DNA from: an uncultured Gammaproteobacteria bacterium
Lineage (GTDB): Bacteria; Patescibacteriota; Patescibacteriia; SG8-24
Assembly: GCA_964491475.1 (NCBI GenBank)
Contig: CAZBFO010000004.1
Span: 3,290 to 67,289 of the forward strand
Length of the DNA: 64,000 nucleotides
Direction: 5' to 3'
A program made the position numbers and the translations under genes. A model generated the notes under the pieces. That model was not told the DNA's origin. It made no database searches and saw nothing but the letters and a program-made list of their open reading frames with translations. This document shows positions 16,343 through 34,043 of the stretch, piece by piece (within the stretch, counting starts at the first letter, position 1; every line of letters starts with the position of its first letter).

Positions 16343-16439
16343 GTGAGGACGGAGGGATGGACGGAATGCCGCTTATGTGGGTGAATACTATAGTTAAGCT
16401 GGCCTTGCGTCAATGGCTTGAGCCCATTATTTAGCCAAA

Positions 16440-17120
16440 ATGGACGGTTTTCTCCTCATCGACAAACCGGCCGGAATCACCTCGTTCGGCGTAATCGCTA
16501 GGTTGCGCCGCATTACGGGGGTCCGCCGCATCGGCCACGCCGGCACCCTCGACCCGTTCGCCACGGGCCTTTTGATCGTGGGCGTGGGCCGAGGAGCCAC
16601 CAAGCACCTGGCCGACTACCTCGGTCAGCGCAAAACTTACGAAGCCGTGGCCGTGCTCGGCGCCACCACGGTCACCCAAGACAAGGACAGCAACGTCGTT
16701 CCCACCGAAGGCGCGACGATGCCGACCGAGGAGGAAATTCGCGCCGCGCTCCCCCGCTTCACCGGCGAACTGTCCCAAACGCCGCCGATGTTCTCGGCCA
16801 AGAAAATCGACGGCAAACGGCTGTACGAGCTGGCACGCGAAGGGGTAGAGGTAGACCGCAAGTCCGTCACCGTTACCATATACGACTTGGAAATGCTCTC
16901 GTACCAGCCGCCCAAGCTCTCCTTCCGCACGACCGTTTCTGCCGGTACCTACGTCCGCACGTTGGCGCACGACATCGGCGCAGCCCTCGGCTGTGGCGCG
17001 TACCTCGAAGCGCTCCGCCGCACCAAGATCGGCGACTATGCCGTCGAAAACGCGTCGACGCTCGATGCGCTGACCGCGGACAACTGGCAGGCGCGTCTCT
17101 TGCCGATCGTTTCGCGGTAA
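16440..17120 (+). CDS. truB: tRNA pseudouridine(55) synthase
   Basis: 226 aa; catalytic motif GHAGTLDPFATGLL; no PUA domain (short form). Confidence 0.9.
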   Translation: MDGFLLIDKPAGITSFGVIARLRRITGVRRIGHAGTLDPFATGLLIVGVGRGATKHLADYLGQRKTYEAVAVLGATTVTQDKDSNVVPTEGATMPTEEEIRAALPRFTGELSQTPPMFSAKKIDGKRLYELAREGVEVDRKSVTVTIYDLEMLSYQPPKLSFRTTVSAGTYVRTLAHDIGAALGCGAYLEALRRTKIGDYAVENASTLDALTADNWQARLLPIVSR

Positions 17121-17199
17121 AAATGCCGGTGGAGCGACTGGACTCGACGGCGAGTTATTGCTATCTTCCCCACCGCGTTCTTTCGCCCAAGGAGGGCAA

Positions 17200-17925
17200 A
17201 TGAAGCAGGCGACGAAGGAAACCGTGTACAAAGTGCTGGTGGCTGCCGCGATGGTCACGCCGCCCTGGAACGTCTTCTGGTGGACCGTGGGCGGCATCGT
17301 CTATGCCGTCAGCGGCGGAAAAGGCTGGGACACATCCGGCGACGGCGCCCTGGCCGTGGTGATCGGCGCGCCGGTCACGCTGCCGATGCTGCCGTTCATG
17401 CTGCTCAAGGATCGGCGCGAACTGCGGGAACGTGAAAAGCGACAGGCGCTCTACGCGAAAGCGGCCACGTGGATCGCGACGGAGCTTGCCAGGAGCGGCA
17501 TCGCGGTCCAAAAACACGGTGCCGGCTTCATGGGCGTCGACGTCACGGCGACGCCAGACGGTCCCAGCCAAGAGAACGAACATGCCGTGATCTACGCGCT
17601 GGCGGTGCGCCGTTTCGCGTCCGAAGGACTGACCATCGACGAAATCTGCGAACGCGCGGAGCCGCTGCACACCCTCGACCGCACCTGGGCCAAGGTCAAC
17701 GGCTTCACGGCCTGGGCCGAAGAGGTCTTCACCAAGAACTGCGTCGACTGCGGCCAACGGCTGTCGCTCGGCTGGTTCTTCGGAGGAGCGGCCGACGGCA
17801 TGCGAAGGCTGGAAAGTCGGCATCGTTCCCGCATCGCCCTCAAGGACGGCAGCGAACGGGTCGTCGACGGCCACATCTGCCGGGAATGCCTGGAAAAAAT
17901 CGACTACCGCTTCATCAGCAGCTGA
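17200..17925 (+). CDS. hypothetical membrane protein with C-terminal Cys4 zinc-ribbon-like motif
   Basis: ATG at 17200 after AAGGAGGG SD; two N-terminal TM segments; CVDCGQ...CRECLEK at C-terminus. Confidence 0.5.
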   Translation: MKQATKETVYKVLVAAAMVTPPWNVFWWTVGGIVYAVSGGKGWDTSGDGALAVVIGAPVTLPMLPFMLLKDRRELREREKRQALYAKAATWIATELARSGIAVQKHGAGFMGVDVTATPDGPSQENEHAVIYALAVRRFASEGLTIDEICERAEPLHTLDRTWAKVNGFTAWAEEVFTKNCVDCGQRLSLGWFFGGAADGMRRLESRHRSRIALKDGSERVVDGHICRECLEKIDYRFISS

Positions 17926-17944
17926 ACGGAACCGACCCCAAACG

Positions 17945-17976
17945 AAAACGACGGCGCTTGCCGTCGTTTTTTCTTT
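17945..17976. terminator. bidirectional rho-independent terminator
   Basis: stem cgacggc / gccgtcg with gctt loop, A-run on one side and T-run on the other; sits between convergent genes 17200..17925 (+) and 17988..19511 (-). Confidence 0.5.
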
Positions 17977-17987
17977 TTCGTCTTGCG

Positions 17988-19511
17988 CTAGTTCGCCAGG
18001 AAGATCGTCTTGAGCGCGTCGTACACGGGCTTCTTGCTGCCGTCGTAACGGTACATGCCGAAGAAGTTTTCGGTAGTGACCGTCGAGGTGCCCAAGTCGG
18101 TGTAGGTGTGCCAGAAGAATCCCCCGATCAGCGGGTCGGCCAAGGACAGCGACAGCGCCTCCCTGCCGATGGCCGCCTGCAGGTCCTCGCTCACGTGATC
18201 CGGGCTGTTGGCAAGGTTGTAGTCGGCGGTCGTGGCGAGCGCGCCGGGACCGTTCGTCGGAGCGCCGACCTCGGTGATCCAGATCTTCTTGGTGCCGTCG
18301 CCGTTGCCGTTCATGATGCTGCGGAGGCTGACGCTGGTACTTGACATCTGCTGCCAGGCGTTCCATTCGGCTTTATACGAAGGGAGCACCGGGAACGAGT
18401 ACGGGTGGAAGGCGACTGCATCCATCGAGGGACCGACGCCCAAGGCGTAGGCCTGGGACAGGAAGTCGCGCGGCGAAACGTCGCCGTTGCCGGTCGCGGC
18501 CGGGGCCAGACCGCCGAGCAGCACGGTTGCCGAAGGGTCGCTCTTGCGAACCGCCGGCGCCGCCAGCTTCAGCAGGGCGACGTAATCGGCGACCGCCGAA
18601 GGCGACTGCCAGAAGACGTGCACGTTCTCCTCGTTCCAAATCTCATAGGCGTGCACGCCCATCGGGGCGTAGCGAGCCGCGGCAGTGCCGGCGAATGTGG
18701 CGAACGCGGCAGGATCAGCGGGAGCGCAGCGCGGTGCCGTGCAACCCGATGCGCGAGCCCAAGCCGGCGAGTAGGCCACGACGGCCAACGGCTTCAAACC
18801 ATGCGCGATCGCGGCTTTCACGAAGGTGTCAGGGCCGGTCCAGCTGAAGGAGGCGCTGCTGGTCTGCTGCACTTCGCTCCAGTCGATGTCGAAGCGCACC
18901 CAGGTGACGCCCATCGAGACCATGTCGTTGAGGCGGTTGTTCATCTCGGTGCTCGACAGTCCCATCATGGTCGTGCCGACGGCCATGCCGAAAGGATGCG
19001 TCGAAGCGCTGGAGGCGACCAGCGTGCCGCTGATGGGAGCGGTGCCGGTGCCCGAACCGGAGGTCGGCGCCGTGTTCGTGTTGGTCGGGACGGTATTGGT
19101 ATTGGTCGGCGCCGTGTTGGCGTTGACGACGACCGTGTTGGCGTTTGCGGGAGAAGTATTCGTATTGGTCGGCGCGGGAGAGGGCGTGATCGGAGCGGTA
19201 ACGGGAGAAGTGGCGGGCTTGCGGTAACGCGTACGGGCGTATGTTGCGGCGCGCAGCACCTCTTCCTCGCTGGTGTCGAGGCCGTTCAGCCTGTCCGCCA
19301 GCTTTTTCAGCGCGGACACTTCGGTAGGAACCGCAGCCACGCTCTGGACGCGCGGCAGATCGGATACATCGGGCAGCTCGGGTGCGCGCACCGCCTGCTG
19401 AAGAAGGACGGCCACGGCCGCAATGGTAAAAAGGGCCACTAAACCGTATGCAGCCCCGTTGCGCCATCGCGTGTTGTCCGACGAACGTCGCTCTTGTGGT
19501 GTGTTTGGCAT
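17988..19511 (-). CDS. membrane-anchored glycoside hydrolase, GH5/GH39-like (PslG-like endoglycanase candidate)
   Basis: trimmed to MPNTPQERR...; N-terminal TM AAYGLVALFTIAAVAVLL; Thr/Asn/Pro repeat stalk; (beta/alpha)8 hydrolase motifs ...HAYEIWNEEN... (acid/base Glu) and ...IWITEVG... (nucleophile Glu). Confidence 0.7.
   Translation of the reverse strand: MPNTPQERRSSDNTRWRNGAAYGLVALFTIAAVAVLLQQAVRAPELPDVSDLPRVQSVAAVPTEVSALKKLADRLNGLDTSEEEVLRAATYARTRYRKPATSPVTAPITPSPAPTNTNTSPANANTVVVNANTAPTNTNTVPTNTNTAPTSGSGTGTAPISGTLVASSASTHPFGMAVGTTMMGLSSTEMNNRLNDMVSMGVTWVRFDIDWSEVQQTSSASFSWTGPDTFVKAAIAHGLKPLAVVAYSPAWARASGCTAPRCAPADPAAFATFAGTAAARYAPMGVHAYEIWNEENVHVFWQSPSAVADYVALLKLAAPAVRKSDPSATVLLGGLAPAATGNGDVSPRDFLSQAYALGVGPSMDAVAFHPYSFPVLPSYKAEWNAWQQMSSTSVSLRSIMNGNGDGTKKIWITEVGAPTNGPGALATTADYNLANSPDHVSEDLQAAIGREALSLSLADPLIGGFFWHTYTDLGTSTVTTENFFGMYRYDGSKKPVYDALKTIFLAN
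19062..19175 (-). repeat. in-frame tandem repeat encoding PTNTNT/ANANT linker
   Basis: DNA shows repeated gtgttggt/gtattggt units; translates to PAPTNTNTSPANANTVVVNANTAPTNTNTVPTNTNTAPT within the GH5-like protein. Confidence 0.7.
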
Positions 19512-19537
19512 ACGTGTCCGGTTAAGTGTCCTTTTTG

Positions 19538-21982
19538 TCAGGATAGCACGGCGTTTTGCCTCGATAAAGCTGCCGATTTCCGGCTTAAAACGTACAGTAT
19601 CAGGCCGCAGAGCGCCGTGATGGCGTTTCCGACGATCCAAGCGAAACCGATGCCGGCGAGGCCAAAGCGGAGGAAGGCGTTGGCAAAACCGATGAGGGCG
19701 GCAGCATACACGACGTTGGTGATGACCAAAGCTTTCAGGTTCTTGCTGATGCGGAATAGCGCCGTATAGAAGGACACGATCGCCACGGGCACGCACGCCA
19801 AGGTGATGAGGTCCAAAAAGCGAATGCCGCCGGTGCCGTAGTTCTTGCCGAACATTCGCAGCAGCCACTCGCCGAAGAGCAGCAGGAAAGCCGCGGCGGC
19901 GGCCAAGGCAGGCGCCATGATTCCGATCGCCTTTCGGATATGCCGCTTCAGTTCGGTCTGATCGTGAGAACCCTCGGCGAACAGCGAACGAGTAGTGGCC
20001 CAAGCGACGGTATAGAGCATGTTGCCTATCATCATCACGACGTAAAAATAGGCGGAGCTTGCGGGACCGAGCCTGTTGGTGATCAGAATCGGCAAATACG
20101 TCACCGGAATCAGGTTGAATGCGCCGGCGAAATAATTGCCGGCGCAGTACTTTGCCACCAGTTTTATGACACGGCCGTCCAGCCGCAACTGCGGCCGGTA
20201 TCCCATGTGCCGAATCAGCGCAGCCATGCTCAACGTGAACCCGATGACCTGCGCGAGCGCTGCGGCCAGGTAGATGCCGGTGGCGCCAAGGCTGACGAAA
20301 AACAGCGGGAACATCATCTTGGCGAAGCTGAAGATGGTGTTGATTGCCAGGGTATATTCCGCCTTGCGGTAGGCGAGGAAAACCGAATCCGTGATGATGT
20401 TCAGCGCCATCAGGATGGCGAAGAGCACGAACGCCGCGCTGTACAACGGCGACTGGCGCACGAACGTCAGGCTCGGCGAAATCAGGTGTACGAGCGCGAT
20501 GAAACCGGACGCCAGCAGGAGGGCAGTGACGCTCACCACCAAAAAGCCGGTATTGAGCTTCTGGTTGCGAGTTTCGGACGTCGGAAGGAAGCGCACGAAG
20601 GCCATGTCGAAACCGGCCAGCGAGAGCGTGGCGATCAGGTTCATGATGGCGATCAGCGTTGTCGCCACGCCGATGTCCGCCGCGCCGTACAGGCGGGCAT
20701 TGATGAGCCAGAAGAAGAAACCGAAACCGGCCATCACGGCAGTCGCAAGCATGAGGCAGAGCGAATTCCGAAACAGCACGTCAGCGGAGAGCCTTTCGAG
20801 CAAGGACGGGACGATCCGGCGCAGCCCGCCCTTTCGCCGCACGCCCGTGGCCTCAATGCAGACGGCCTCGAGTTTTTTGGTAGCGGCAAGCCAGCTGCAG
20901 CTGCGTTCGACGTGACGCCGGGCGCGCTCCCCCATCTCCTTGCGCAGGGCGGAGTCAGCAAGAAGCGGAGCGATCGCCGCGGCCAGCGCCTCTGGAGACT
21001 CCGGCTGCGCGTAAGTGACGTTGTCGCCGAACTCCTCCCGCATTCCGCCGATGTCGGCAATGACGACTGCCTTTCCGCAAGCCAAATACTCGTAGACCTT
21101 GAAGGGAGATGTCGCCCCGGCGCGTATCCCGATCGGATAACAGATGCAGATGTCCGAGCTGCCGATGATTGCCGGCACTTCGGCATGAGCGACCGGCGGA
21201 TGCAGCCCGATGCGGTCGGCGAACGGCGAAGCGGCTACGAGCGATGCGATGCGCGGGCCCTCCGGGCCTTTGCCGGTGATGGAAAATCGGACGTCCGCGC
21301 GGCCGGCGCAGACGATTTCTGCGGCTTTCACGATATGCTCCACGCCTTGCCACGAAGCAAAGCTGCCGACATAGCCTACGACGATTTCTCCGTGGGTCGG
21401 TTTTGGCATCGGCTTGAAGACGTCAGTGTCGACGCCGCTCGAAACGAAGGTCACGCGATCGGCGGGAATGCCGTAGGTTGAGATGACGTGATCGCGAATG
21501 CCGGCGGTCACGCCGATCATTCTCTGGGAGTTTCTGAAATTGAAGAGTTCAAGCGCATGAAAGACGCGCAGAGCGGACAGCAACCGGTTGACCGCGCCTT
21601 TGTTGAAGCGGGCGTCATCGCCATACCTGCTGTTCACCTCCTGAACGATAGGCACGCCGAACGCCCTGGCCACGAGGGTCGGGACGAAAAGAAGGTGGCT
21701 GTGCCGAGAATAGATGAAATCTGGACGGCGAAGAACGATTTCGACGCCGAGCCTGACGAGCAATGACAGCTGATAAAACACCGCGAGCATCGCCCGTGGC
21801 GTACGAATGAGCACCGTGTCGATCGGTGCCAGGTACGGGCGCGTACCCGTCTTCGGCGCGAACAGGACCACTCGATGGCCGAGCAGCCTGAAATTACGGC
21901 ACACCTCCAGCACGTGCACGGCCGGAGCGAAGTCGTCATTGAAGTCGAAATCGGTGGTGTAGACGATGTTCATGCGACTCAT
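19538..21982 (-). CDS. fusion protein: GT4 glycosyltransferase + MOP-superfamily (Wzx-like) polysaccharide flippase
   Basis: N-terminal ~390 aa GT-B/GT4 (…GYVGSFASWQGVEH…, EYLACGKAVVIADIGGMRE); C-terminal ~420 aa with ~12 TM helices typical of polysaccharide biosynthesis/Wzx flippases. Confidence 0.75.
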   Translation of the reverse strand: MSRMNIVYTTDFDFNDDFAPAVHVLEVCRNFRLLGHRVVLFAPKTGTRPYLAPIDTVLIRTPRAMLAVFYQLSLLVRLGVEIVLRRPDFIYSRHSHLLFVPTLVARAFGVPIVQEVNSRYGDDARFNKGAVNRLLSALRVFHALELFNFRNSQRMIGVTAGIRDHVISTYGIPADRVTFVSSGVDTDVFKPMPKPTHGEIVVGYVGSFASWQGVEHIVKAAEIVCAGRADVRFSITGKGPEGPRIASLVAASPFADRIGLHPPVAHAEVPAIIGSSDICICYPIGIRAGATSPFKVYEYLACGKAVVIADIGGMREEFGDNVTYAQPESPEALAAAIAPLLADSALRKEMGERARRHVERSCSWLAATKKLEAVCIEATGVRRKGGLRRIVPSLLERLSADVLFRNSLCLMLATAVMAGFGFFFWLINARLYGAADIGVATTLIAIMNLIATLSLAGFDMAFVRFLPTSETRNQKLNTGFLVVSVTALLLASGFIALVHLISPSLTFVRQSPLYSAAFVLFAILMALNIITDSVFLAYRKAEYTLAINTIFSFAKMMFPLFFVSLGATGIYLAAALAQVIGFTLSMAALIRHMGYRPQLRLDGRVIKLVAKYCAGNYFAGAFNLIPVTYLPILITNRLGPASSAYFYVVMMIGNMLYTVAWATTRSLFAEGSHDQTELKRHIRKAIGIMAPALAAAAAFLLLFGEWLLRMFGKNYGTGGIRFLDLITLACVPVAIVSFYTALFRISKNLKALVITNVVYAAALIGFANAFLRFGLAGIGFAWIVGNAITALCGLILYVLSRKSAALSRQNAVLS

Positions 21983-24900
21983 CGGTAAACGCGGGAATCG
22001 CCGTTGTCGTAGAGACGGTCCTTTTGCTCGTCCAGGAAGTCGACCGGATAGCTGTAGAAAAAGGAGGAGTCGTTGTAGTCCGTGGCGCTGACGCGCTTGT
22101 GGATGTTGGCGTAGCCGAGGAAGACGTAGGCGTACTTGCGCACGAGGCCCGGATAAATGTCGAAGAGCACGTTCGTGCCAGCGATGCTGCTCACCTTGCT
22201 GGAAAGAAAGCGGTCGGATTGCACGCTCGCCTGGTACTCGAAGTGCGGGTCATTCGACTTTATTTCGGAAAGCCATTCCACGCCGAGCACTTCCCCGCGA
22301 TGAAGGTAATACTCATCGTAGTAGTCTCCGGAATTGTTCAGGTGCAGCTGCGGTCCGTAGGCTCCCAACGCCTGGGTAAACACGCCGGTCGACGAGTACA
22401 GGAAGACGACCGCCATGACGGCGCCGATGCCGATCCTGACGCGATCGCTTGCGCCCAACGGCCACGCCAGGCTGCCGAGCACGATGAAGATGCCCATGAA
22501 AACCAGGGACTGTTCGAAGGCCCGCATGATGCCGTATTCGACGGAAAGCACGGGGAGAAGCACCAAGGCCAAAATGAACAGCAGGCTGGCGATCGCCATG
22601 AGACCGTATTCGAGGTCGAGCTTGCGCCGCAGGAACCGCCGACCCAGCAGGCAGGCGCCCATGCCGACGAAAATGAGGATTTGCAGCAGCTTGGCGGTGC
22701 CCTGCCTGAAATCGTAGTTGAACGCGGCCACATCGACCCCCAGCGACTGCAACCATCGTCCGACGGGCGTCAGCTCGAGGACGACCGGCTTGGAGGCGGT
22801 CACTTCGTCCTTACGGTATTCGGCCGGCGCGAAAAACGTTCCCGGCAATTCCCTGCCGCGCGCCTTCTCGACCACCTTGTTCTGATATTCGGCGAGCAGC
22901 TCGGCCGGCGTTTGGCTCTTGTGCCACGAGAAGAGGCTGTAAAGCACCGTCCCCGATTGCGCGTCCTCACGGACATTGCTGCGCATGACGGCGACGGTCT
23001 TTACGACGACGCGGTACAGGCTGTTCGAAGACGTGTCGGTCAGCACGCTGCTCCAAAGAAAGCTGGCACCGCCCAAAATGATGACGACCGGAACCGTAAT
23101 CACGTAACCCCTCGGAACCGGCCCTGACGGCGTGAGGGCGACGCCCGCCCGCTTGAACCATCCCCACTTCGCCAAAAGACGGACGATGGGCCGGGTGAAA
23201 AGCAGGATGAGCATCAGCAAGATGACCGTGTACGTGGTTGAATAGTGCGACAGCACCAAACCAAATCCCAGCGACACGAACAGCCGTCTGCGCAGCTTGA
23301 GCGAAATGTCGGTGGCGAAGGCCAAGTACGTCATTATCGCCACGAACATGAAGGCGATCTCCTGGCGGTCCAGCATGGGCATGTCCCCGAAGAAGGTCGG
23401 AAACGCCATGAAATAGATCGCGTTCATGACCGCCAGCGTCGAAGACACGAATCGGCGCGTGGTAAGGTACAGGACGCTCGGAACGGTCGCGAAGAGGATT
23501 TGAAAGAAGACCTTGTACGCGTACGGGTCGGAAAACTTGAGCGTGCGCGCAAACATCACCGGCAGAATCGTGATGCTGATGCAGGCGTTGTAGGCGTCGT
23601 GAAAGTTCGCGATGGACCAGTAGCCGTTATGTTTCGTCAGCTGGAATACGCGGAATTCGCGCTGCACGTCGTGGCCGGTCGTAAACCAGCCGCGAAGCGA
23701 GGTCATGAAGAGCAGGGAGAGCCCCATGAAGAACAGGGCCGTCGCGACGGCGTCGGGATGAATGCGCTTTGCGCGCCACATCAGAAGGCCCGCGTACGCC
23801 CCGATGCCCACGAGCATCGCGTAGGTCAGCCACGAGCTGCCGCCGTTGTTGAGCAGGATGGCCCCGAAGGCGCTCATCGCCACGAATACCGACGGGAAAA
23901 ACGCCAAAACGACATCACCGGTTTTTCCCAGGAACGAGAAATCGAATGGCACGTATTCGACCTTCGCGCGCAGGATGCAGACGATGGCCAGGGCATAGAC
24001 CAGCAACGTGGTCTCAATCAATATGTACGGTCCGTACAGCGGTTGCGCGATGCCCAGCAACGGAAAGACGGTGTTGCCCAAAAGGCCCGCCAGCATGAGC
24101 TCAAGAACGCCGAAACCGATGACCAGGCTCAAGCTGCCCCACAACGGCATGCTCTTGAGGCGGATGGCCAAGACCGTCAAATAGCCCGGCACCAGAACCA
24201 GCGAAAGGAACCCGACGATGTTCAGCATCTGATAACTGTTGAACTGCAAAGCCGACAGCACCGTAAAAGCCGACCAGGCCAGCATGGCCGCGGCCAGGCC
24301 GCCGAATGCAGGAGCGCGGTCGAGGACGGCGGGACGCGCCTTGGCGGCAACGCCGTCATACGCTGCTTGAATCCGCCCGACGAAAACGTCGACGGTATGG
24401 AGTCTCGCCTTTGCCGCGCTGGCGCGCGACAAATCCGAAAGCAGGCGCTTCTTCTCCCAAAGCATCTCGATGACCTGGACGAACTGCTCGACATACGGCT
24501 CGTTGACCAGGATGCCCGTGTCGCCCAACAGGCCCGCAATGCCGCTGACGTTGGTGCCTACGACCGGCAACCCTCCGGCCATCGCCTCCAAGACGACCAG
24601 AGGCGTACCGCCTTCGCGATCGGAAGAAATCAGCAGCATGTCGTTCGATGCGTGATAGGCCTTCATCTCGGCGTCATTCTTGCTGCCGACGAACGTCACG
24701 TTGTGACGAGAGTGCTCGGCCACCAGCTTTTCGAGCGCCCGCCGCTCTTCACCGTCGCCCACGACCGTCAGATGCGCCGGTACTTTCAGTTGCGCAACGG
24801 CCTCGATCAGGCGTTCGACGCGTTTCTGGCGCGCCAGACGCCCGACGTACAAAAGGCGGAAGACGTCCTCGTGCGGCACGTAATCGCGCCGTACGAAAAA

Positions 24901-25461
24901 GTCCGCTTTGACGGCGTTAGGGATGATCGAGATGCGATCGGACCGCACGCCGTATTTTTTTTGCAGGACGGACGCCTGATCCTCTGCGCAGACGATGATC
25001 CGGCTGGCACCGCGGAACAGCGGCACCCACGCAAGTCGCTTGTAGAGGAGAAACAGCGTGCCGAACGGGCCAGAGGGACCGACATCGAGATGAAAGTGAA
25101 CCACGTACCGGAGATTCCTCACCCGAGCGGCAAGCATGACCAGCTCCGGCCAATAGGCCTGCGAAAGATGCAGATGCAAAATGCTGTCCTTCGGGAGCTT
25201 CATGAGCTCCCAAAAAAGTCCCGGAGCAAAAGGCGTGTGCGCGAATTCGAAGCTTGCCAGCCGCTTGACGGTCAGGTTCCCGACGGTATTGCTGCCGCGC
25301 CGATCGCCTTGCGAGGACGCCAAAACGAGGACGCGATGGCCCGCCGCGGCCATGGCCTCCGCGATCGTGCGCGCCACGCGCTCCAAGCCGCCGACGTACG
25401 GCGGATAGTGCGGGCTAAGATGTACCAAAAGCGGCTGCTTGCTCATATTCACGAAAGGCAA
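21979..25461 (-). CDS. fusion protein: GT4 glycosyltransferase + ~770-aa polytopic membrane domain of unknown function (GT-C-like/DUF2206-like candidate)
   Basis: N-terminal GT4 (…LLYVGRLARQKRVERL…, PLVVLEAMAGGLPVVGTNVSGIAG); then >15 predicted TM helices and a C-terminal ~120-aa soluble domain. Confidence 0.7.
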   Translation of the reverse strand: MPFVNMSKQPLLVHLSPHYPPYVGGLERVARTIAEAMAAAGHRVLVLASSQGDRRGSNTVGNLTVKRLASFEFAHTPFAPGLFWELMKLPKDSILHLHLSQAYWPELVMLAARVRNLRYVVHFHLDVGPSGPFGTLFLLYKRLAWVPLFRGASRIIVCAEDQASVLQKKYGVRSDRISIIPNAVKADFFVRRDYVPHEDVFRLLYVGRLARQKRVERLIEAVAQLKVPAHLTVVGDGEERRALEKLVAEHSRHNVTFVGSKNDAEMKAYHASNDMLLISSDREGGTPLVVLEAMAGGLPVVGTNVSGIAGLLGDTGILVNEPYVEQFVQVIEMLWEKKRLLSDLSRASAAKARLHTVDVFVGRIQAAYDGVAAKARPAVLDRAPAFGGLAAAMLAWSAFTVLSALQFNSYQMLNIVGFLSLVLVPGYLTVLAIRLKSMPLWGSLSLVIGFGVLELMLAGLLGNTVFPLLGIAQPLYGPYILIETTLLVYALAIVCILRAKVEYVPFDFSFLGKTGDVVLAFFPSVFVAMSAFGAILLNNGGSSWLTYAMLVGIGAYAGLLMWRAKRIHPDAVATALFFMGLSLLFMTSLRGWFTTGHDVQREFRVFQLTKHNGYWSIANFHDAYNACISITILPVMFARTLKFSDPYAYKVFFQILFATVPSVLYLTTRRFVSSTLAVMNAIYFMAFPTFFGDMPMLDRQEIAFMFVAIMTYLAFATDISLKLRRRLFVSLGFGLVLSHYSTTYTVILLMLILLFTRPIVRLLAKWGWFKRAGVALTPSGPVPRGYVITVPVVIILGGASFLWSSVLTDTSSNSLYRVVVKTVAVMRSNVREDAQSGTVLYSLFSWHKSQTPAELLAEYQNKVVEKARGRELPGTFFAPAEYRKDEVTASKPVVLELTPVGRWLQSLGVDVAAFNYDFRQGTAKLLQILIFVGMGACLLGRRFLRRKLDLEYGLMAIASLLFILALVLLPVLSVEYGIMRAFEQSLVFMGIFIVLGSLAWPLGASDRVRIGIGAVMAVVFLYSSTGVFTQALGAYGPQLHLNNSGDYYDEYYLHRGEVLGVEWLSEIKSNDPHFEYQASVQSDRFLSSKVSSIAGTNVLFDIYPGLVRKYAYVFLGYANIHKRVSATDYNDSSFFYSYPVDFLDEQKDRLYDNGDSRVYR

Positions 25462-27731
25462 TCGGAAATGAGCGCTCGGTACTGCGCCACCTGCGCGGCC
25501 ATGCCGTACTTGGTGCGGGCCTTGCGGACGCCGTTGGCGGCGAGATGCCGGGCAAAGGGCTCGTCGCTCAACACGCGGCGAATGGCGGCGGCAAGCGCGG
25601 ACTCGTCGCCGGGAGTCACCAGCAGGCCGTCTTCGCCGTCGGCGATGACCTGCGGGATGCCGCCGACGTTCGAACCGATGACCGGGCGGCCGCTGGCCAT
25701 GGCCTCGATGAGAACGATGCCGAACGCTTCGGCGCCCGTGAGCGACGGCAGCGTCAACGCGCTGCTGCGGCGGTACGCCCGCACCAGTTCGTCGCCGAGC
25801 ATCGGACCGGAAAAGATGACGTTCCGCTCGATGCCGAGATCCTTGGCCATGGCACGATAGCGCGGCACGGCGTCTCCGCCGCCGACCAATTCCAATTTGG
25901 CGTCGGGAATCGACCGCGCGACGAGCTTCATGGCGCGAAGCAGCGCCGCAATCCCCTTCCAGGAAGAGGTCTCCTCGATGCGGCCCACGAACAGCACCGT
26001 CTTGCTGCCGGACGGCAGCGGGGTAGCGGCGAAACGTTCATCATCCACGGAGGGAGGGATGTCGTGCACCTTGGCGCGGAACTCCGGAAAGGCGCTCTCG
26101 AAATATTTGGTCGAAATGGCGACGATCGCCCGCGCCTTCTTGAACAGCAGGCGCAGCACGTACTGTTCGTACGCCCAAATCACGGCATCGATCGGGTAGC
26201 GGCCCTTGCGCATGCTGCCGGCGTGATACGTCACCAAGACGGGCGTCTGGCCTGCGGCCATGGCAGCCACGTCGGCGATGAAGGGCACCGGGGAGTGCGC
26301 GTGAACGAGTTGCGGCTTGGCGAATCGGAAGAGCTTGCGCAGCCAGAAGTACCACATCGGATTGACCGGCGTGTTCGACACGCGGAAGGCCGTCGGCAGA
26401 CGGTGCACGGTCATGCCGTCGATGACGTCCTGGCGGTAACCGGCGCCGTCGTGATTGCTGGTAATCACGCTGACGTCGCAGTCGCCGGATCGCTGCAGCC
26501 GGCGGGAAAGCTCGTAGGAGTAATTCTCGAGGCCTCCGATCTTCGGGTAGAAGTACGGAACGACCACGGCAATGCGCGTTTTGCCCGGAACCCCTTCCGG
26601 AAGGGCGCCGCGCAAAAACGCCTCGTACGCCGCGGCGCGCGATTCCCACATGTAGGCGGCGCCGATCTTGGCGCGTCCGGCGGCTCCCATCGCGGCGGCC
26701 AGGGCGTCGTCCTTGAGCAACCGCGTTATCCGTGCGGCAAAGGCGGGCGCGTCTCCCGGAGCGCAGGTGAAACCGTTTACGCCGTCCTCCACCAGACCGC
26801 TGCCGATTTTGCCGCAGACCACGGGCAGCCCGCAGCTCATTGCCTCGAGCACCACCATCGAGAAGCTGTCGTTGTGCGTCGGCAGGCAGAACACGCGTGA
26901 CTCCTGATATGCGCGCACCAATGCGGCCCCTTCGGCCTTGCCGTAAAAACGCACGGCCCCCGCAAGACCGAGCAGGCGTATTCGCTCCTCATGTTCCGAA
27001 CGCATGTCGCCGTCTCCGACCACCAGCAGGCGTGCCGCAGGAATCTCGGCGGCCACCGGCACGAAGGCGTCGATCAGCGTTTGCAGGCCCTTGTGCTGTT
27101 CCGAACGTCCCAAGCCGCCCACGAACAGCACCGTCGGTTCGGGTTTCCGGCTGCCGGCCGCAGGAACGAAAACGGAACCGTCGACGGCGGGCGTGACGGT
27201 CGTGCTCTTGTACCTGTAGGCGCGCAAAAAGTCGTTGCGCACGGCATCCGACGAGCAGATAATGCGGTCGGCGCGGCGCAGCAGCAGGGGCAGGAGCACT
27301 TTTTCGTATGCCCAAATGACCGGATCGACCCAGCGGTTGCCCTTGCGCATGCTCAAGCCGTGATAGGTCACGACGACCGGCGTCTTGCCGGCGACGAGCG
27401 AGGCGATGTCACCGATGCCGGGGACGGGCATGTGCACGTTGATGACGGCAGGGCGAAGTTCCCGGATGATGCGCCTGATCTTGAACGGCCACAGGAACGC
27501 AAAAGGCATGTTCGACCATTTACAGGCGTAGGCCAGCTTATGCACGGTGATGCCGTCGACCGCGGCGATCTCGTCCTTGCCGAAACGGGCGCCGGATGTG
27601 ACAAAGGTGACCTTCCAACCATGCGTTGCCCGCAGCCGCTTGGCCATTGCCAGGGCATAACGCTCCAACCCTCCGCCGTTCGGCGGAAAGTAAGGCGTGA
27701 CGAACAGGATGTTCGTTTGTTCCTGGCGCAT
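25449..27731 (-). CDS. tandem double GT4 glycosyltransferase
   Basis: two complete GT-B/GT4 units (…VLFVGGLGRSEQHKGL…SMVVLEAMSCGLPVV… and …VLFVGRIEETSSWKGI…GIVLIEAMASGRPVIGSNVGGIP…). Confidence 0.8.
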   Translation of the reverse strand: MRQEQTNILFVTPYFPPNGGGLERYALAMAKRLRATHGWKVTFVTSGARFGKDEIAAVDGITVHKLAYACKWSNMPFAFLWPFKIRRIIRELRPAVINVHMPVPGIGDIASLVAGKTPVVVTYHGLSMRKGNRWVDPVIWAYEKVLLPLLLRRADRIICSSDAVRNDFLRAYRYKSTTVTPAVDGSVFVPAAGSRKPEPTVLFVGGLGRSEQHKGLQTLIDAFVPVAAEIPAARLLVVGDGDMRSEHEERIRLLGLAGAVRFYGKAEGAALVRAYQESRVFCLPTHNDSFSMVVLEAMSCGLPVVCGKIGSGLVEDGVNGFTCAPGDAPAFAARITRLLKDDALAAAMGAAGRAKIGAAYMWESRAAAYEAFLRGALPEGVPGKTRIAVVVPYFYPKIGGLENYSYELSRRLQRSGDCDVSVITSNHDGAGYRQDVIDGMTVHRLPTAFRVSNTPVNPMWYFWLRKLFRFAKPQLVHAHSPVPFIADVAAMAAGQTPVLVTYHAGSMRKGRYPIDAVIWAYEQYVLRLLFKKARAIVAISTKYFESAFPEFRAKVHDIPPSVDDERFAATPLPSGSKTVLFVGRIEETSSWKGIAALLRAMKLVARSIPDAKLELVGGGDAVPRYRAMAKDLGIERNVIFSGPMLGDELVRAYRRSSALTLPSLTGAEAFGIVLIEAMASGRPVIGSNVGGIPQVIADGEDGLLVTPGDESALAAAIRRVLSDEPFARHLAANGVRKARTKYGMAAQVAQYRALISDCLS

Positions 27732-27742
27732 ATCGTGAATGA

Positions 27743-28441
27743 TTACGGCAGCTCCGCGTTAATGACGCAGCGCACGTCCGAGGCGGCGGCAATGTGCGCG
27801 AAGACGCGTTCCAGCCTTCGCCAATCGCCGTTCTTTTCGATTTCCCAAGAATGGCCCCAGAGGTGGAACGCGGAACCTTCGGCACAGGCTTTGTCGAAAA
27901 GCGCATTGGCCAGTTTGTCCCAGTTGAGATAGCAGCGCAGGAACTTGCCGGGGCCGACGGCACGCAGGATGGCGAGAGCGTCGGACCAATGTCGGTAGGC
28001 GTGAACGGTCGTGGTCAGCGCGAAGCGGTTGGCATCGGCCGCAGGACCGAAGCGGCGCACGGTGCGTGCCAGGGTGAACCCCGCCTCTGCCGCCATGGCT
28101 TCGTGCCGAGCTGAAAAATCCCCGCAGGGATAGCAGAACGAGGTGACCGGCCTGCCGGTGACGCGTTCGAGGTATTCGCGCGACTCGCGCATTTCCTCCA
28201 GTGCCCGATCATCGGGAATACGCGAAATGCGCGGATGGGTCATAGTATGCGCGCCGATCTCGGCCTCCGCGGCCAACGCGCGAATCTGCTGGTCGGTCAG
28301 GCGGTCATCCGGAGCCACTTCCCTGCTCCGCGGAGCCACGTAGAACGTCCCCTTAAGGCCGTATTTCCGCAGCAAAGCAAGCACTTTCAGATCGAGCTTG
28401 TGCCCGTCATCCCAGCTTGTCGTCACTGCGGTTCGTTTCAT
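27743..28441 (-). CDS. polysaccharide deacetylase (NodB/CE4 family)
   Basis: TSWDDGH motif (Asp-Asp metal/catalytic pair), later His residues; 232 aa. Confidence 0.8.
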   Translation of the reverse strand: MKRTAVTTSWDDGHKLDLKVLALLRKYGLKGTFYVAPRSREVAPDDRLTDQQIRALAAEAEIGAHTMTHPRISRIPDDRALEEMRESREYLERVTGRPVTSFCYPCGDFSARHEAMAAEAGFTLARTVRRFGPAADANRFALTTTVHAYRHWSDALAILRAVGPGKFLRCYLNWDKLANALFDKACAEGSAFHLWGHSWEIEKNGDWRRLERVFAHIAAASDVRCVINAELP

Positions 28442-28446
28442 AGGTT

Positions 28447-30294
28447 TCAGCCGAATACGCGCTGCAGGCTGCCGGCGACCTTCTGCCAGTCGTAGCGCTC
28501 GATGTCCTGACGGGGGCGCAAGTCGTCGCGCGTGGCGAGCACCTGGAGCATCTTCGAAGCCAGGGCGTCGACGTCGGGAGTCACCAGAAACCCGTTGACC
28601 CCTTCGCTGATCAGTTCCTTGGCGGCGTTGTTTTCATGTTCGGTGGTTATGACCGGAATGTCGGCGGCGTTCGCCTCGACCACCACCAGGCCGAAGCCTT
28701 CGCGGACGGACGGCAGCACCAGCATCTTCGACGCCTTCATCTTGGCGTAGACGTCCTCTGCGCCTTCGATGGCGCCGTAGAAGGTCACGTTTTCCTCCAG
28801 GCCGAGCTCGGCAACCAGCGCCTGCAGCTTCTGCCGCTCCGGACCGACGCCGACGATGGCCGTGCGGAACTGCGGATGAATCATCTTCACCGTCGCGGTG
28901 GCGCGAATCAGCAGGTCGACGTTCTTGTGGTCGATCAGTCGGCCGACGTAAATGGCGTCGCTGCCTTCCGCCGCGGGAACGGCGGCAGTGATACTCTCGA
29001 GGTCGGCGCCCAGCGGCACCGTCACGATTTCACAGCGCACGTTCTCCAGGCGCAGGCGGCGCGTGGTGTGCTCGGAGTTGGAGATGATGACGTCCGGCAG
29101 GCGCATGGAAAGGCTCTCCACGGCGTGACCGAGGAGGCCGGAGACGCCGCCCAGATAGTGCTTCCAATAGGCGCGTCCCCAGACTTCATGCCAGGTGGCG
29201 TGCAGCTTTTTGCCGCGCACCCAAGTGGCCAGGCGGGCGCCGAGCAGCGGGAAGAACGGCATGTGGTCGACGTCGATCACGTCAAACTTGGCGAAGGCCA
29301 GCTTCAGCGAGGCCAGCCCGAAGCACAGCGCCTGCAAAATGGAGCGGCGGCCGTTCACGTACATCGGACGATGGCCGCAGAGCGCGTGGTAGCGGATGCC
29401 GTCCACGACCTTGATCTTCGGGCCTTCCCACCACTGCATGGTGTAGATGCGCACTTCGCAGTCGTCGGAGACCATGCGGCGGGCGATCTCGTACAGGCGC
29501 TTCTCCTTGCCGCCCTGATGGAACGGCATGACGGCGTCGGACACGAACGCCAGGGTGCGGACGTCCGGCTTTTCCGGTTCCCAAACGAGCACGCGCAGGA
29601 ACATCGACATGATGCGCGCGCCGTCGGTGAGCGGGTTCAGGTTGCTTTCGCCGGCGCGGGCGTCGTAGCTGATGGGGACGCAGTAAATCTCCTCGCCCAG
29701 CCTGGCCATCTTGGTGACCATCTCCATCTCGATCGAGAAGTCGGTCGACTTGAGGTGCGGGGCGAGACGGAGCAGCGACTCGCGCTTCCAGGCGAAGTAG
29801 CCGGTCAGCACGTCGGTCACGTTGGCGCCATAAAAATAGCGGACCAGGTGCGAGAAGATCCAGTTGCCGATGCGGTTGACGGCGCCCATCGAACCTTCGG
29901 AAATGCGGCCCGCGAGGCGCGAACCGATGACCACGCTGCAAAAGCCGGAATCGAGCGGTTCAACCAGGCGCAGCACCTCTTCGGGGCGGTAGGTGTCGTC
30001 GCCGTCGAGCATCACCACGTAGTCGGCGTCGTTCTGGGCGACGTACTCGAAGCCGTGGCGGATGGCGTTGCCCTTGCCCTTCTTGTCTTCGGACAGCACC
30101 GTGGCGCCGTTCTCGCGGGCGATCTCGGCGGTACGGTCCTTGGAGTTGTTGTCGATGACGATGACCTCGAGCTCGTAGCCGAAAGCCGCAAGGCGCTCCT
30201 TGGGGAACTTGCGGATGACCGAAGCGATGCCCTGCTCTTCGTTGTAGCAAGGGATCAGGACCGCGATTTTCTTTTTCACGTCCGGTTGATGCAT
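28447..30294 (-). CDS. fusion protein: GT2 (polyprenyl-phosphate sugar synthase, DPM1/GtrB-like) + GT4 glycosyltransferase
   Basis: N-terminal GT-A: IPCYNEE, VIDNNSKDRT, VVMLDGDDT (DxD); C-terminal GT-B/GT4: …AIYVGRLIDHKNVDLL…GLVVVEANAADIPVITT…. Confidence 0.8.
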   Translation of the reverse strand: MHQPDVKKKIAVLIPCYNEEQGIASVIRKFPKERLAAFGYELEVIVIDNNSKDRTAEIARENGATVLSEDKKGKGNAIRHGFEYVAQNDADYVVMLDGDDTYRPEEVLRLVEPLDSGFCSVVIGSRLAGRISEGSMGAVNRIGNWIFSHLVRYFYGANVTDVLTGYFAWKRESLLRLAPHLKSTDFSIEMEMVTKMARLGEEIYCVPISYDARAGESNLNPLTDGARIMSMFLRVLVWEPEKPDVRTLAFVSDAVMPFHQGGKEKRLYEIARRMVSDDCEVRIYTMQWWEGPKIKVVDGIRYHALCGHRPMYVNGRRSILQALCFGLASLKLAFAKFDVIDVDHMPFFPLLGARLATWVRGKKLHATWHEVWGRAYWKHYLGGVSGLLGHAVESLSMRLPDVIISNSEHTTRRLRLENVRCEIVTVPLGADLESITAAVPAAEGSDAIYVGRLIDHKNVDLLIRATATVKMIHPQFRTAIVGVGPERQKLQALVAELGLEENVTFYGAIEGAEDVYAKMKASKMLVLPSVREGFGLVVVEANAADIPVITTEHENNAAKELISEGVNGFLVTPDVDALASKMLQVLATRDDLRPRQDIERYDWQKVAGSLQRVFG

Positions 30295-30303
30295 ACGTCG
30301 TCG

Positions 30304-33916: not shown

Positions 33917-33923
33917 GTCGCGA

Positions 33924-33955: not shown

Positions 33956-34043
33956 ATGTGTTGGCGGTTTTTTGTTCCCCAATGGCCCGACCTCCAAGTC
34001 ACCGTATTTCCACCGTCCGAAAAGGGCGTAATAGTGCTAACTG

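Follow-up and report, generated by a model that had tools for sequence, protein, structure and literature searches.

The locus described here raises the question of what a very large membrane domain does when it is fused to a cytoplasmic glycosyltransferase of family GT4. The gene lies in a window, the whole stretch of 64,000 nucleotides that was analysed, and all positions refer to it. A preliminary description had proposed that the domain is the GT-C partner of a DPM1-like GT2 from the same operon.

The operon and its fusion gene

The fusion gene is part of a tight seven-gene operon (17988..30738). The features are as follows, with residues of the fusion protein numbered on its open reading frame.

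17944..17971, no strand: probable terminator of the operon, a GC-rich 12-bp hairpin with runs of T on both strands that lies between convergent genes
17988..19511, minus: membrane-anchored PslG-like glycoside hydrolase (clan GH-A), last operon gene
19538..21982, minus: GT4 (20828..21982) fused to a Wzx/PST-type MOP flippase (19538..20827)
21979..25446, minus: GT4–GT-C fusion gene, 1155 aa from ATG; the reading frame reaches TTG at 25461
24337..25446, minus: its cytoplasmic GT4 (GT-B, retaining), aa 6–375 (Pfam Glycos_transf_1 and Glyco_transf_4)
23764..24336, minus: extra N-terminal six-helix membrane module before the GT-C core, aa 376–566 (AF2)
22387..23763, minus: predicted GT-C core of 11 transmembrane (TM) helices, aa 567–1025 (Foldseek, PMT_2 matches of homologues, topology)
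23530..23697, minus: first extracytoplasmic loop of the core, aa 589–644, motif SLRGW..TGHD.QRE
23668–23670, minus: codon of D598
23359..23385, minus: second outside acidic/basic cluster, D693 ... R699 Q700 E701
22732..23040, minus: 103-aa outside insert within the core
21982..22386, minus: C-terminal extracytoplasmic alpha/beta domain, aa 1026–1160, within the Pfam DUF2206 match
25449..27731, minus: GT4–GT4 double glycosyltransferase (Pfam)
27743..28441, minus: cytoplasmic CE4 polysaccharide deacetylase, no signal peptide
28447..29559, minus: GT4 domain joined to the GT2 (Pfam)
29560..30294, minus: DPM1/AglJ/ArnC-like GT2 domain, aa 1–245 of a 615-aa GT2–GT4 protein, no TM helix
30304..30738, minus: operon gene 1; its 144-aa product has a single TM anchor and, outside, a beta-rich domain (motif PE..TELYF; weak match to DUF1616)

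The open reading frame 21979..25461 on the minus strand is present exactly as first described, with 1160 codons counted from TTG. A database protein of 100% identity has 1155 aa and begins at the ATG at 25446, which sits 2 nt past the stop of the upstream gene and is probably the start of the fusion gene, giving 1155 aa. The identical protein is encoded in an independent Logan assembly (L081), and GT4–DUF2206 fusions at 41–44% identity recur in at least 10 other database proteins; the fusion is therefore no assembly artefact. Such fusions are also found in 9 of 80 related loci. In the GT4 half, Pfam matches cover aa 23–347 (Glycos_transf_1, E 7e-28; Glyco_transf_4, E 7e-21), relatives in the PDB are BshA, WaaG and WbnH, and the domain is orthologous to the gene immediately 5′ of DUF2206 in 42 of the 80 loci. 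The gene is predicted to encode a bifunctional enzyme, in which an N-terminal cytoplasmic GT4 Leloir glycosyltransferase is joined to a 17-helix membrane domain.

The GT2 half of the protein encoded at 28447..30294 carries the motifs IPCYNEE and LDGDD, and the proposed DPM1-type signature (CYNEE/DGDD) is borne out by its relatives. The NCBIfam model AglJ matches at 198 bits (E 1.7e-58), below its equivalog cut-off of 325, and the C-terminal part of the model is replaced by the GT4. The closest solved relatives are the Pyrococcus Dol-P-Man synthase PfDPMS (E 8e-13, residues 8–241) and ArnC (E 1e-10). Among the other members, the start of the GT4–flippase gene and the stop of the GT-C gene overlap by 4 nt, 23 of 25 flippase homologues match Polysacc_synt, and the hydrolase matches PslG in the PDB at E 1.2e-17. 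Two operon proteins match DUF2206 and DUF1616, Pfam families which we take to be described mainly from archaea. A 971-aa reading frame further upstream, at 31082..33997 on the minus strand, was rejected as an operon member, being a shadow antisense to RNase Y.

Fold and putative active site of the membrane domain

The membrane domain (aa ~376–1160) has 17 TM helices by both hydropathy and AlphaFold, and the same two methods place a 103-aa insert and a 135-aa C-terminal alpha/beta domain on the outside, in agreement with the earlier estimate of more than 15 helices and a C-terminal soluble domain. In the topology model the N-terminus is inside, and the fused GT4 is therefore cytoplasmic. Lys and Arg in short loops amount to 19.2 per 94 residues inside versus 0.8 per 23 outside. 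All 53 loop positions conserved at 90% or more lie outside, and none inside.

The comparison with GT-C families gave a Pfam match to DUF2206 at aa 925–1159 (61 bits, cut-off 35.6). PMT_2 was matched by all 7 homologues searched at 25–32 bits, about at its cut-off, at positions ~275–390, within the GT-C core region. This is the sole sequence-level GT-C signal, and the families concerned use single-sugar donors; a profile search against the PDB found no sequence-level link to any solved GT-C enzyme, and hhalign against E. coli ArnT gave a weak alignment in the same register (E 0.13).

At the structural level, the AF2 model of the membrane domain (pLDDT 88.5, pTM 0.92) was compared with the PDB by Foldseek, and the matches with probability 1.00 are all GT-C enzymes (STT3A/B, AftA, yeast Stt3, DPY19, PglB), with ArnT at rank 12 (probability 0.80). 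GT-C matches become ~100-fold better once the six-helix module (AF2 helices 8–191, domain numbering) is removed. With the core alone (model pLDDT 87.2) there are 20 matches at E ≤ 1e-3, GT-C enzymes fill the first 22 ranks, and the best match reaches E 1.7e-7 with a query-normalised TM-score of 0.47; STT3 and PglB stand far higher in the list than ArnT and PMT. Across the searches the GT-C enzymes matched are STT3, PglB, AftA, DPY19, AftD and ArnT, at modest TM-scores of 0.41–0.48. As modelled, the last 11 helices and the two outside soluble parts form a glycosyltransferase of GT-C fold. It belongs to DUF2206, an uncharacterised family that is mentioned in no paper in the literature searched. 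Most family members are stand-alone proteins of ~785 aa that lack the GT4, and the family is frequent in Actinomycetota.

Conservation was assessed in 78 sequences from several phyla at 31–50% identity. D598, E602, R590, K650, R699, H739 and R980 are invariant, and so are G596, W615 and C627, which share the first outside loop of the core with R590, D598 and E602. The second cluster is nearly as constant (D693 in 77/78, R699 and Q700 in 78/78, E701 in 76/78). The motif NN.G.YYD.YY of the C-terminal domain lies directly past the last TM helix, with Tyr of its YYD in 67–72 and Asp in 66 of the 78. Candidate active-site residues come from the first (D598, E602) and second (D693/R699/E701) outside loops of the core, joined by H739 and R980, and the model places the putative active site on the outer face of the membrane. 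An acidic motif had been anticipated in the first extracytoplasmic loop: the invariant D598 and E602 do face outside, but their loop is the first of the GT-C core and not of the protein, because the core starts only past the six-helix module. The domain thus looks like neither a transporter nor a non-glycosyltransferase family lacking an outside acidic motif; its fold and these residues fit the proposed GT-C partner.

Related loci

Co-occurrence was counted in the 50 loci whose flanks reach 8 kb or more on each side. The GT2 is found in 46 of them (upstream and on the same strand in 40), so that the proposed partners exist as a gene pair in 46 of 50; a Wzx-type flippase is equally frequent (46), ahead of the PslG-like hydrolase (39) and the deacetylase (30). 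The 144-aa gene adjoins the GT2 on its upstream side in about 31 loci. GT4 genes occur in 78 of the 80 loci of the wider set, and no minimal GT2 and GT-C pair free of GT4s was found among them. The membrane domain had been called the only candidate for the GT-C role in the operon; its GT-C fold holds, but a second polytopic domain exists, namely the flippase. No further conserved polytopic family was found in the related loci.

Within ±10 kb, the related loci share neither a conserved initiating phosphoglycosyl transferase nor a conserved Wzy. A single-sequence search over the same distance found a WcaJ-type enzyme in 1 of 81 sources and a WecA-type enzyme in none, a search so insensitive that its WzxC query found no flippases. 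PEP-dependent pyruvyl transferases, typical modifiers of repeat units, are accessory genes in 14–18 loci. Fusions track the gene order (GT2–GT4, GT4–deacetylase, GT4–GT4, and one to three GT4s with DUF2206). Collinear order and fusions reflect functional coupling, not the order of steps.

Proposed donor and mechanism

The membrane domain is very probably a GT-C enzyme whose polyprenyl-phosphate-linked donor is tied to the GT2. We infer the following route, including its lipid carrier, the order in which the steps run, the acceptor and a donor that is transferred en bloc. The AglJ/DPM1-like GT2 would load a hexose onto polyprenyl phosphate; the five GT4 domains and the CE4 deacetylase would lengthen and modify the lipid-linked glycan on the cytoplasmic face; the Wzx-type flippase domain would flip it; the GT-C would transfer the polyprenyl-phosphate-linked glycan en bloc to a growing chain, as Wzy does, or to an envelope acceptor; and the PslG-like hydrolase would trim or release the polymer. 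The complete route is proposed tentatively, as somewhat short of probable. We slightly favour it over a close ArnC/ArnT-like rival because the GT2, flippase and hydrolase are conserved, while no initiating phosphoglycosyl transferase or Wzy is.

The gene content resembles that of Wzx/Wzy loci such as Pseudomonas psl (PslA initiator, PslC GT2, PslF/H/I GT4, PslK Wzx, PslJ Wzy, PslG hydrolase), with a GT2, several GT4s, a Wzx-type flippase, a membrane-anchored PslG-like hydrolase and repeat-unit modifiers (the deacetylase and, in some loci, a pyruvyl transferase). Unlike psl, the operon has no PslA/WbaP-type initiator and no Wzy-type polymerase, and the fold matches of the DUF2206 domain include no Wzy, WaaL or SEDS structure; by analogy, the GT2 and the GT-C would take the places of initiator and Wzy. 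A precedent for GT2-primed assembly may be seen in the Agl route of Haloferax volcanii (AglJ, AglG/I/E, AglR, AglB, AglD/AglS), where AglJ, the best family match of the GT2, puts the first sugar on the monophosphate carrier Dol-P, other enzymes extend it, and the glycan is flipped and transferred by AglB (PMC3871713). The flippase shares the Polysacc_synt family with AglR, and here, as in the Agl route, a GT-C would perform the final outside step. The operon differs in being bacterial, in extending with GT4s, in a GT-C that is no AglB homologue by sequence, and in a GT2 that falls under the AglJ cut-off with its C-terminal part exchanged. We know of no precedent in Bacteria for polyprenyl-monophosphate-linked oligosaccharides or for a GT-C block polymerase. 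The PMT_2 signal, judged from sequence, also counts against en bloc transfer and points to a single-sugar donor.

The rival reading, quite possible and in line with that signal, has the GT2 make a polyprenyl-phosphate monosaccharide that is flipped and serves the GT-C as a source of single sugars. These would be added outside to a glycan or glycolipid built by the GT4s, as a side branch in the manner of GtrB/GtrC, ArnC/ArnT and GT136-like systems, or processively in the manner of Ppm1 with MptA/EmbC-like enzymes. Single-sugar transfer outside is the usual job of bacterial GT-C enzymes, and both a DPM1/ArnC-type GT2 and the GT-C fold are at hand, as is the weak ArnT alignment. Known three-component systems (GtrA/B/C, ArnC/ArnT/ArnEF, CsbB/YfhO and the GT136 system, whose flippase is of the MATE/MOP type) likewise co-encode a DPM1-like GT2, a flippase and a GT-C, and MOP/MATE flippases can serve polyprenyl-P-sugar donors in such systems (PMC11127046). 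These systems are, however, add-ons to a complete main pathway, whereas the trio here is inseparable from three to five GT4s, deacetylase and hydrolase; a GT4-built acceptor would be left with no conserved initiator, exporter or second flippase, and polymerase or ligase in the cluster. Unlike GtrB and ArnC, the GT2 has no TM helices, and it is fused to a GT4, as are the GT-C and the flippase; the structural ranking places STT3/PglB above ArnT/PMT; and cytoplasmic deacetylation and pyruvylation suggest that most of the product is the unit built by the GT4s.

Actinomycetota, where the family is common, possess GT4, Ppm1 and GT-C lipoglycan pathways, which also speaks for single-sugar transfer. 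The mycobacterial PIM/LM/LAM and arabinan machinery (PimA/PimB GT4; Ppm1 GT2; PimE/MptA/EmbC/AftA/AftD GT-C) similarly combines cytoplasmic GT4s, a TM-less polyprenyl-P-sugar synthase and outside GT-C enzymes, of which AftA and AftD are among the structural matches. Its genes, however, are dispersed and show no sequence similarity, and to our knowledge these pathways as now described include no MOP flippase and no PslG-like hydrolase.

It is unlikely that the GT-C works like AglB and PglB, moving a flipped oligosaccharide once onto a protein (for instance one of the surface or S-layer) without a polymer being formed. The oligosaccharyltransferases (GT66, GT-C_A) are the best structural match, over nearly the whole core and the C-terminal domain (E 1.7e-7 to 1e-4), with which the domain shares acidic residues in outside loops 1 and 2 and a soluble domain past the last TM helix, and would share an outward active site and a flipped polyprenyl-(P)P-linked glycan donor; the YYD motif lies at the position of WWDYG, and the operon has an AglJ-like GT2, an AglR-family flippase and archaeal-type DUF families. 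Yet there is no detectable sequence similarity to STT3, PglB or AglB, WWDYG itself is absent and YYD is not invariant, the core counts 11 helices against their 13, and the six-helix module, 103-aa insert and cytoplasmic GT4 are additional. The conserved PslG-like endoglycanase points to a polysaccharide and not a glycoprotein, and no acceptor protein is conserved except, as a candidate, the 144-aa protein. A transporter, a Wzy/WaaL/SEDS-type polymerase or a mere anchor or scaffold for the GT4 is highly improbable: the six-helix module has no assigned function and POT/MFS transporters appear among low-ranking Foldseek matches, but at probability <0.3 and TM-score ~0.1, while WaaL, RodA, FtsW and Wzy are absent from the top 50, most family members have no GT4 to anchor, and the outside-only conservation, with invariant D, E, R and H, is unexpected for an anchor.

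For the favoured GT2-primed route, the pyruvyl transferases and the PslG-like hydrolase, as in exopolysaccharide operons, favour a polymer of repeat units. The GT-C would be the terminal, outside-acting step of a self-contained envelope-glycan operon that is conserved across several bacterial phyla, occurring in Patescibacteria, as here, and also in Actinomycetota and Chloroflexota.

Organization of the operon and its fused genes

The operon consists of seven minus-strand genes that are tightly packed, with gaps of 2–26 nt and one 4-nt overlap. These genes and their plus-strand neighbors are listed below; L081 is a related locus from an independent Logan assembly.

Genes of the operon and its flanks (window coordinates, strand, product and basis)
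30304..30738, minus: 144-aa protein with a transmembrane (TM) anchor; weak DUF1616 match
28447..30294, minus: GT2-GT4 protein; domain matches, IPCYNEE and LDGDD motifs
27743..28441, minus: CE4 deacetylase, cytoplasmic; domain matches
25449..27731, minus: GT4-GT4 protein; domain matches
21979..25446, minus: GT4-DUF2206 protein; domain matches, identical database protein
19538..21982, minus: GT4 fused to a flippase; Pfam scans, including homologues
17988..19511, minus: membrane-anchored PslG-like hydrolase; closest solved relative PslG
31190..32779, plus: RNase Y; L081 gene calls
32804..33916, plus: TrxR-like gene, a real gene under the 971-aa shadow ORF
16440..17120, plus: TruB; L081 gene calls
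17158..17925, plus: 241-aa gene; L081 gene calls

Counted from a TTG codon, the ORF of the GT4-DUF2206 protein (21979..25461, minus strand) has 1160 codons. The identical database protein, P0001, has 1155 aa and begins with an ATG at 25446, 2 nt past the stop codon of the upstream gene. In the ORF numbering, Pfam places a GT4 domain at aa 23–347 and DUF2206 (PF09971) at aa 925–1159, the latter with 61.2 bits against a gathering cut-off of 35.6, and PF09971 is carried by all 120 proteins among the matches listed from the homologue search. Hydropathy and the AlphaFold model agree on a very large polytopic domain that extends from aa ~376 to the C-terminus. The preliminary description had reported a giant fusion of a GT4 to a membrane domain, and these matches confirm it. 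An assembly error is ruled out, since L081 contains the identical protein and operon.

To collect relatives, a single genome of each species was scanned; this yielded 223, and 80 loci were taken for neighborhood analysis. Other GT4-DUF2206 fusions recur, with 41–44% identity to the window protein. The fused GT4 is the orthologue of the gene directly upstream of DUF2206 in 42 of the 80 loci, where stop and start codons often overlap, so the fusion was created by loss of a stop codon. GT4 enzymes usually contain an E-x7-E motif. The fused GT4 reads REGGTPLVVLE (E-x8-E; aa ~281–291, approximately 24600..24640), unlike the GT4 of the GT2-GT4 protein, which has the canonical spacing (REGFGLVVVE).

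The flippase domain of the window matches Polysacc_synt weakly (E 0.0017), while 23 of 25 homologues match this Pfam family, down to E 2.4e-15; a search of the PDB with the flippase profile gave no match. The GT4-Wzx flippase fusion was seen in none of the 80 related loci; most of these have the flippase as a gene of its own, which frequently lies on the other strand. The hydrolase gene encodes 507 aa (17988..19511) rather than the 671-aa ORF, and was earlier labeled "GH5-like". Its closest solved structure is that of PslG, the hydrolase of the Psl exopolysaccharide (PDB 4zn2/5bx9; E 1.2e-17, with the match covering the entire catalytic domain). The hydrolase features an N-terminal TM anchor and a low-complexity linker rich in Thr, Asn and Pro (aa ~100–170, about 19002..19214). 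The 144-aa protein has one TM anchor and an outside β-rich domain with the motifs PE..TELYF and F.F.I.N.E (alignment A3, 31 loci), and in different phyla its gene directly precedes that of the GT2.

The hydrolase gene and the 241-aa gene converge on a perfect, GC-rich hairpin of 12 bp with T runs on both strands (17944..17971), which is probably a bidirectional terminator that closes the operon. Three minus-strand ORFs, 31082..33997 (971 aa), 17161..18366 (401 aa) and 16431..17297 (288 aa), are shadow ORFs and not operon members: they have no Pfam matches and no homologues in related loci, and are contradicted by the L081 gene calls. Housekeeping genes around the cluster include those for IF-2, LeuRS, GyrA and ComEC. 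A 509-aa ORF (36930..38459, minus strand) has a weak Baseplate_J match just under the gathering score (E 3e-4) and could be what is left of a phage or of a contractile-injection element.

Fold, topology and candidate active site of the membrane domain

With only the membrane domain as query, a search gave 254 relatives, the majority of them stand-alone "DUF2206 domain-containing" Patescibacteria proteins of ~785 aa. Many of these also carry PMT_2 (PF13231), a GT-C family. The PMT_2 matches in seven homologues score 25–32 bits against a cut-off of 26.1, at positions ~275–390; in the window protein there is none, even at E ≤ 10. An hhalign comparison with E. coli ArnT was not significant (E 0.13), and the membrane-domain profile gave chance matches only (E > 1) to PDB sequences, with no oligosaccharyltransferase (OST) among them.

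An AlphaFold model built from alignment A1 (61 sequences) reached a pLDDT of 88.5 and a pTM of 0.92, and its fold matches that of solved GT-C enzymes. Every probability-1.00 match in a Foldseek search of the PDB is a GT-C enzyme (STT3A, STT3B, AftA, yeast Stt3, DPY19 and PglB); ArnT ranks 12th. The remaining matches, which include POT and MFS transporters, have probabilities below 0.3 and TM-scores of ~0.1. The register of the PMT_2 matches led us to suspect that the GT-C core starts at the seventh helix. A core-only model (domain residues 192–785; pLDDT 87.2) improved the best E-value from 1.3e-5 to 1.7e-7, the number of matches at E ≤ 1e-3 from 7 to 20, and the query-normalized TM-score from 0.36 to 0.47. 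The top 22 matches of the core are all GT-C (STT3, PglB, AftA, DPY19, AftD and ArnT), followed by ALG9, Pmt4 and AftB. Because the GT-C matches improve once the core is modeled alone, the first six helices are taken as an add-on module. The GT-C identity proposed from the sequence is thus supported by the match of the AlphaFold model to GT-C enzymes in the PDB. No WaaL, RodA, FtsW or Wzy-type structure is among the top 50 matches of either model, and on the Foldseek results of both models a transporter or a Wzy/WaaL-type enzyme is rejected.

The predicted topology has 17 model helices, with the N-terminus inside. Short inside loops contain 19.2 K+R per 94 residues versus 0.8 per 23 in short outside loops, and the loop positions that are at least 90% conserved number 53 outside and 0 inside. 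With this predicted topology, the fused GT4 is cytoplasmic and the conserved surface faces outward. Across 78 sequences with 31–50% identity from Patescibacteria, Actinomycetota, Chloroflexota and others, R590, G596, D598, E602, W615, C627, K650, R699, Q700, H739 and Y740 are invariant (ORF numbering), as are W803, P970, Y976, R980 and G1045, while D693 (77 of 78) and E701 (76 of 78) are nearly so. D598 and E602 (GHD.QRE) lie within the first outside loop of the core, which spans 56 residues with two short helices and is predicted to be outside by the positive-inside rule; D693...R699-Q700-E701 are in the outside loop that follows. Two short helices are likewise a feature of the first external loop in GT-C enzymes. 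A conserved acidic motif expected in the first extracytoplasmic loop is therefore present, but in the first loop of the core and not of the whole protein. D598/E602 may correspond to the Asp that is catalytic in PglB or ArnT. The models thus assign DUF2206 to the GT-C fold and map a putative active site to the outside.

The window protein is a member of Pfam DUF2206 and very probably works as GT-C enzymes do. Membership of GT66 (STT3/AglB/PglB) is rejected: there is no sequence match, the core has 11 TM helices versus 13, and WWDYG is missing, with only a partly conserved YYD at the analogous position. The borderline PMT_2 matches in homologues and the insignificant ArnT alignment do not lead us to file the window protein under ArnT/PMT (GT83/GT39). 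Nor does it belong to the Wzy/WaaL/SEDS polymerases and ligases, which form families GT119–GT135 (PMC10920833), as it has no such fold match in the top 50 and a phmmer search with WcaD, an insensitive one, found nothing.

The GT2 neighbor and the conserved cassette

The best NCBIfam match of the GT2 domain is AglJ (198 bits, E 1.7e-58; under the 325-bit equivalog cut-off), and the second is a dolichyl-phosphate hexose transferase model (E 1e-31). Its closest solved structure is the Pyrococcus Dol-P-Man synthase, PfDPMS (E 8e-13, residues 8–241 including the interface-helix region), and three ArnC entries follow at E about 1e-10. These matches, together with the IPCYNEE and LDGDD motifs, bear out the DPM1/GtrB/ArnC-type signature that had been described; by sequence, the domain is of this type, with a GT-A domain and a DxD motif, and polyprenyl-P sugar synthases are its nearest known relatives. 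Neither the GT2-GT4 protein nor its stand-alone orthologues of ~250 aa, which have an amphipathic segment at the end, showed a TM segment, whereas GtrB, ArnC and PfDPMS have C-terminal TM helices. Human DPM1 and M. smegmatis Ppm1 are DPM1-type members that lack TM helices, so that missing helices do not exclude polyprenyl-P synthase activity.

The DUF2206 family comprises 4851 representatives at 50% identity. Among CPR bacteria, the loci represent Saccharimonadia, Paceibacteria and further groups; outside CPR they are from Streptomyces, Actinoplanes, Pseudonocardia, a Mycobacterium, Acidimicrobiia, Thermoleophilia, Ktedonobacteria and a few others. Fifty loci have flanks of 8 kb or more on each side. 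Of these, 46 contain the GT2 (40 of them upstream on the same strand), 46 the flippase, 39 the hydrolase and 30 the deacetylase; about 31 of all 80 loci encode the small TM-anchored protein. GT4 domains mostly number 3–5 per locus. Clustering of all neighborhood ORFs revealed no further conserved family and no other conserved polytopic membrane protein. In phmmer searches, a WcaJ-type phosphoglycosyl transferase was found in one of 81 sources and ArnC-like GT2s in 65. E. coli WzxC, WcaD (Wzy), WecA, ArnT and ArnE/F had no match in the loci, but WzxC missed known flippases too, so these negatives carry little weight and only the WcaJ and ArnC results are informative. It is very probable that the membrane domain is an outer-face glycosyltransferase of GT-C fold, functionally tied to a DPM1/AglJ-like polyprenyl-phosphate GT2 and a Wzx-type flippase.

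Accessory genes in the loci, missing from the window in the second case, encode GalE and pyruvyl transferases (PF04230; 14–18 loci, such as L009:13491-14750 and L013:12358-13647). A 408-aa family with a CxxCxxC-like motif and no Pfam match, also missing from the window, sometimes occurs in tandem (L011:17442-18668 and 18885-20108). Fusions vary between lineages and keep the gene order: GT2-GT4, GT4-deacetylase, deacetylase-GT4, GT4-GT4 and one to three GT4s with DUF2206, up to ~1980 aa. Mega-fusions of two or three GT4s with DUF2206 are found at L017:6986-12370, L028:7754-12328 and L012:3481-8328; the database proteins P0334 (1980 aa), P0321 (1905 aa) and P0248 (1783 aa) have their domains in gene order, an assembly-line-like trend.

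The flanks of the window have no synteny with those of the 80 loci. The nearest relatives of the window GT-C protein are from Saccharimonadales (about 50% identity), while those of GyrA (52316..54808, minus strand) are from Patescibacteria of the Parcubacteria, Uhrbacteria and Magasanikbacteria type (70–88% identity). The flanks and this mismatch both suggest that the cassette moves laterally. By its GyrA, the host is a CPR bacterium, with a high GC content of 62%.

The sugar donor and the meaning of the cassette

From its context, with the GT2 in 46 of the 50 loci with full flanks, the GT-C protein would use a polyprenyl-phosphate-linked sugar donor. The core of the preliminary proposal, a lipid-linked donor made by the GT2 and used by a GT-C partner, is supported by this co-occurrence and by the fold; its ArnC/ArnT-type form is one of two models.

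The model that we slightly and tentatively favor is the en bloc transfer of a GT2-primed glycan. The GT4s and the deacetylase would build the unit, the flippase would flip it, and the GT-C enzyme would move it en bloc, either as a polymerase or onto an envelope acceptor, after which the PslG-like hydrolase would trim or release the polymer. In the first step the GT2 would prime the lipid carrier, which is the role of AglJ in Haloferax (PMC3871713). This model is preferred because each conserved gene is used exactly once and nothing further is needed. The GT2-GT4 fusions, the higher rank of OSTs than of ArnT and PMT among the fold matches, and cytoplasmic deacetylation and pyruvylation are counted in its favor. 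Deacetylation and pyruvylation are typical of repeat units.

Alternatively, the GT2 may supply a polyprenyl-P-monosaccharide that the GT-C enzyme adds outside, as in ArnC/ArnT, GtrB/GtrC, GT136, and Ppm1 with MptA/EmbC; this is possible, with a slightly smaller share of our confidence. It is favored by the PMT_2 signal in homologues and by two points of precedent. To our knowledge, all bacterial DPM1-type GT2/GT-C pairs use single-sugar donors, while PglB takes an oligosaccharide without such a GT2 partner, and we know of no bacterial precedent for oligosaccharides on polyprenyl monophosphate. The single-sugar donor is less favored since the acceptor built by the GT4s would be left without an initiator, exporter or polymerase in all of the scattered, apparently self-contained cassettes. 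The GT136 three-component system employs a MATE flippase (PMC11127046), and synthase, flippase and GT-C are all present in the window operon. Such systems are add-ons to a separately complete glycan pathway, whereas here no separate initiator, polymerase or exporter for an acceptor is conserved within ±10 kb of the loci. A purely OST-like variant of donor transfer is improbable, and non-catalytic or other roles of the membrane domain are at least as improbable.

The en bloc reading can be carried further, with considerable doubt, to a self-contained, laterally mobile polysaccharide pathway on "archaeal" chemistry in monoderm-type phyla (Patescibacteria, Actinomycetota and Chloroflexota). The AglJ-like GT2, in place of a phosphoglycosyl transferase, would start the repeat units on polyprenyl monophosphate, and after Wzx-type flipping the DUF2206 GT-C would polymerize them or transfer them en bloc, replacing Wzy or WaaL. 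In this reading GT2 and GT-C would form a matched pair that substitutes for the phosphoglycosyl transferase/Wzy pair, and the in-order fusions, up to ~1980 aa, would represent an assembly-line-like megasynthase.

A literature search for DUF2206 and PF09971 found nothing relevant and no publication naming DUF2206. DUF2206 is a GT-C family without a characterized member, distinguished by its extra N-terminal six-helix module and its setting in a conserved glycan cassette that is initiator-less and Wzy-less; the window protein is further distinguished by its lineage-specific fusion to the upstream cytoplasmic GT4. The fold, the mapped outside site and the partner set give this sizeable family a concrete, testable function and make it a candidate new CAZy family, once assayed. 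The cluster is among the few envelope-glycan systems common to ultra-small Patescibacteria and cultivable Actinomycetota (Streptomyces, Actinoplanes and Pseudonocardia), whose homologues offer a route into a CPR surface polymer. Should the en bloc model prove true, this would be the first bacterial pathway to swap the initiating phosphoglycosyl transferase and Wzy for a GT2/GT-C pair.
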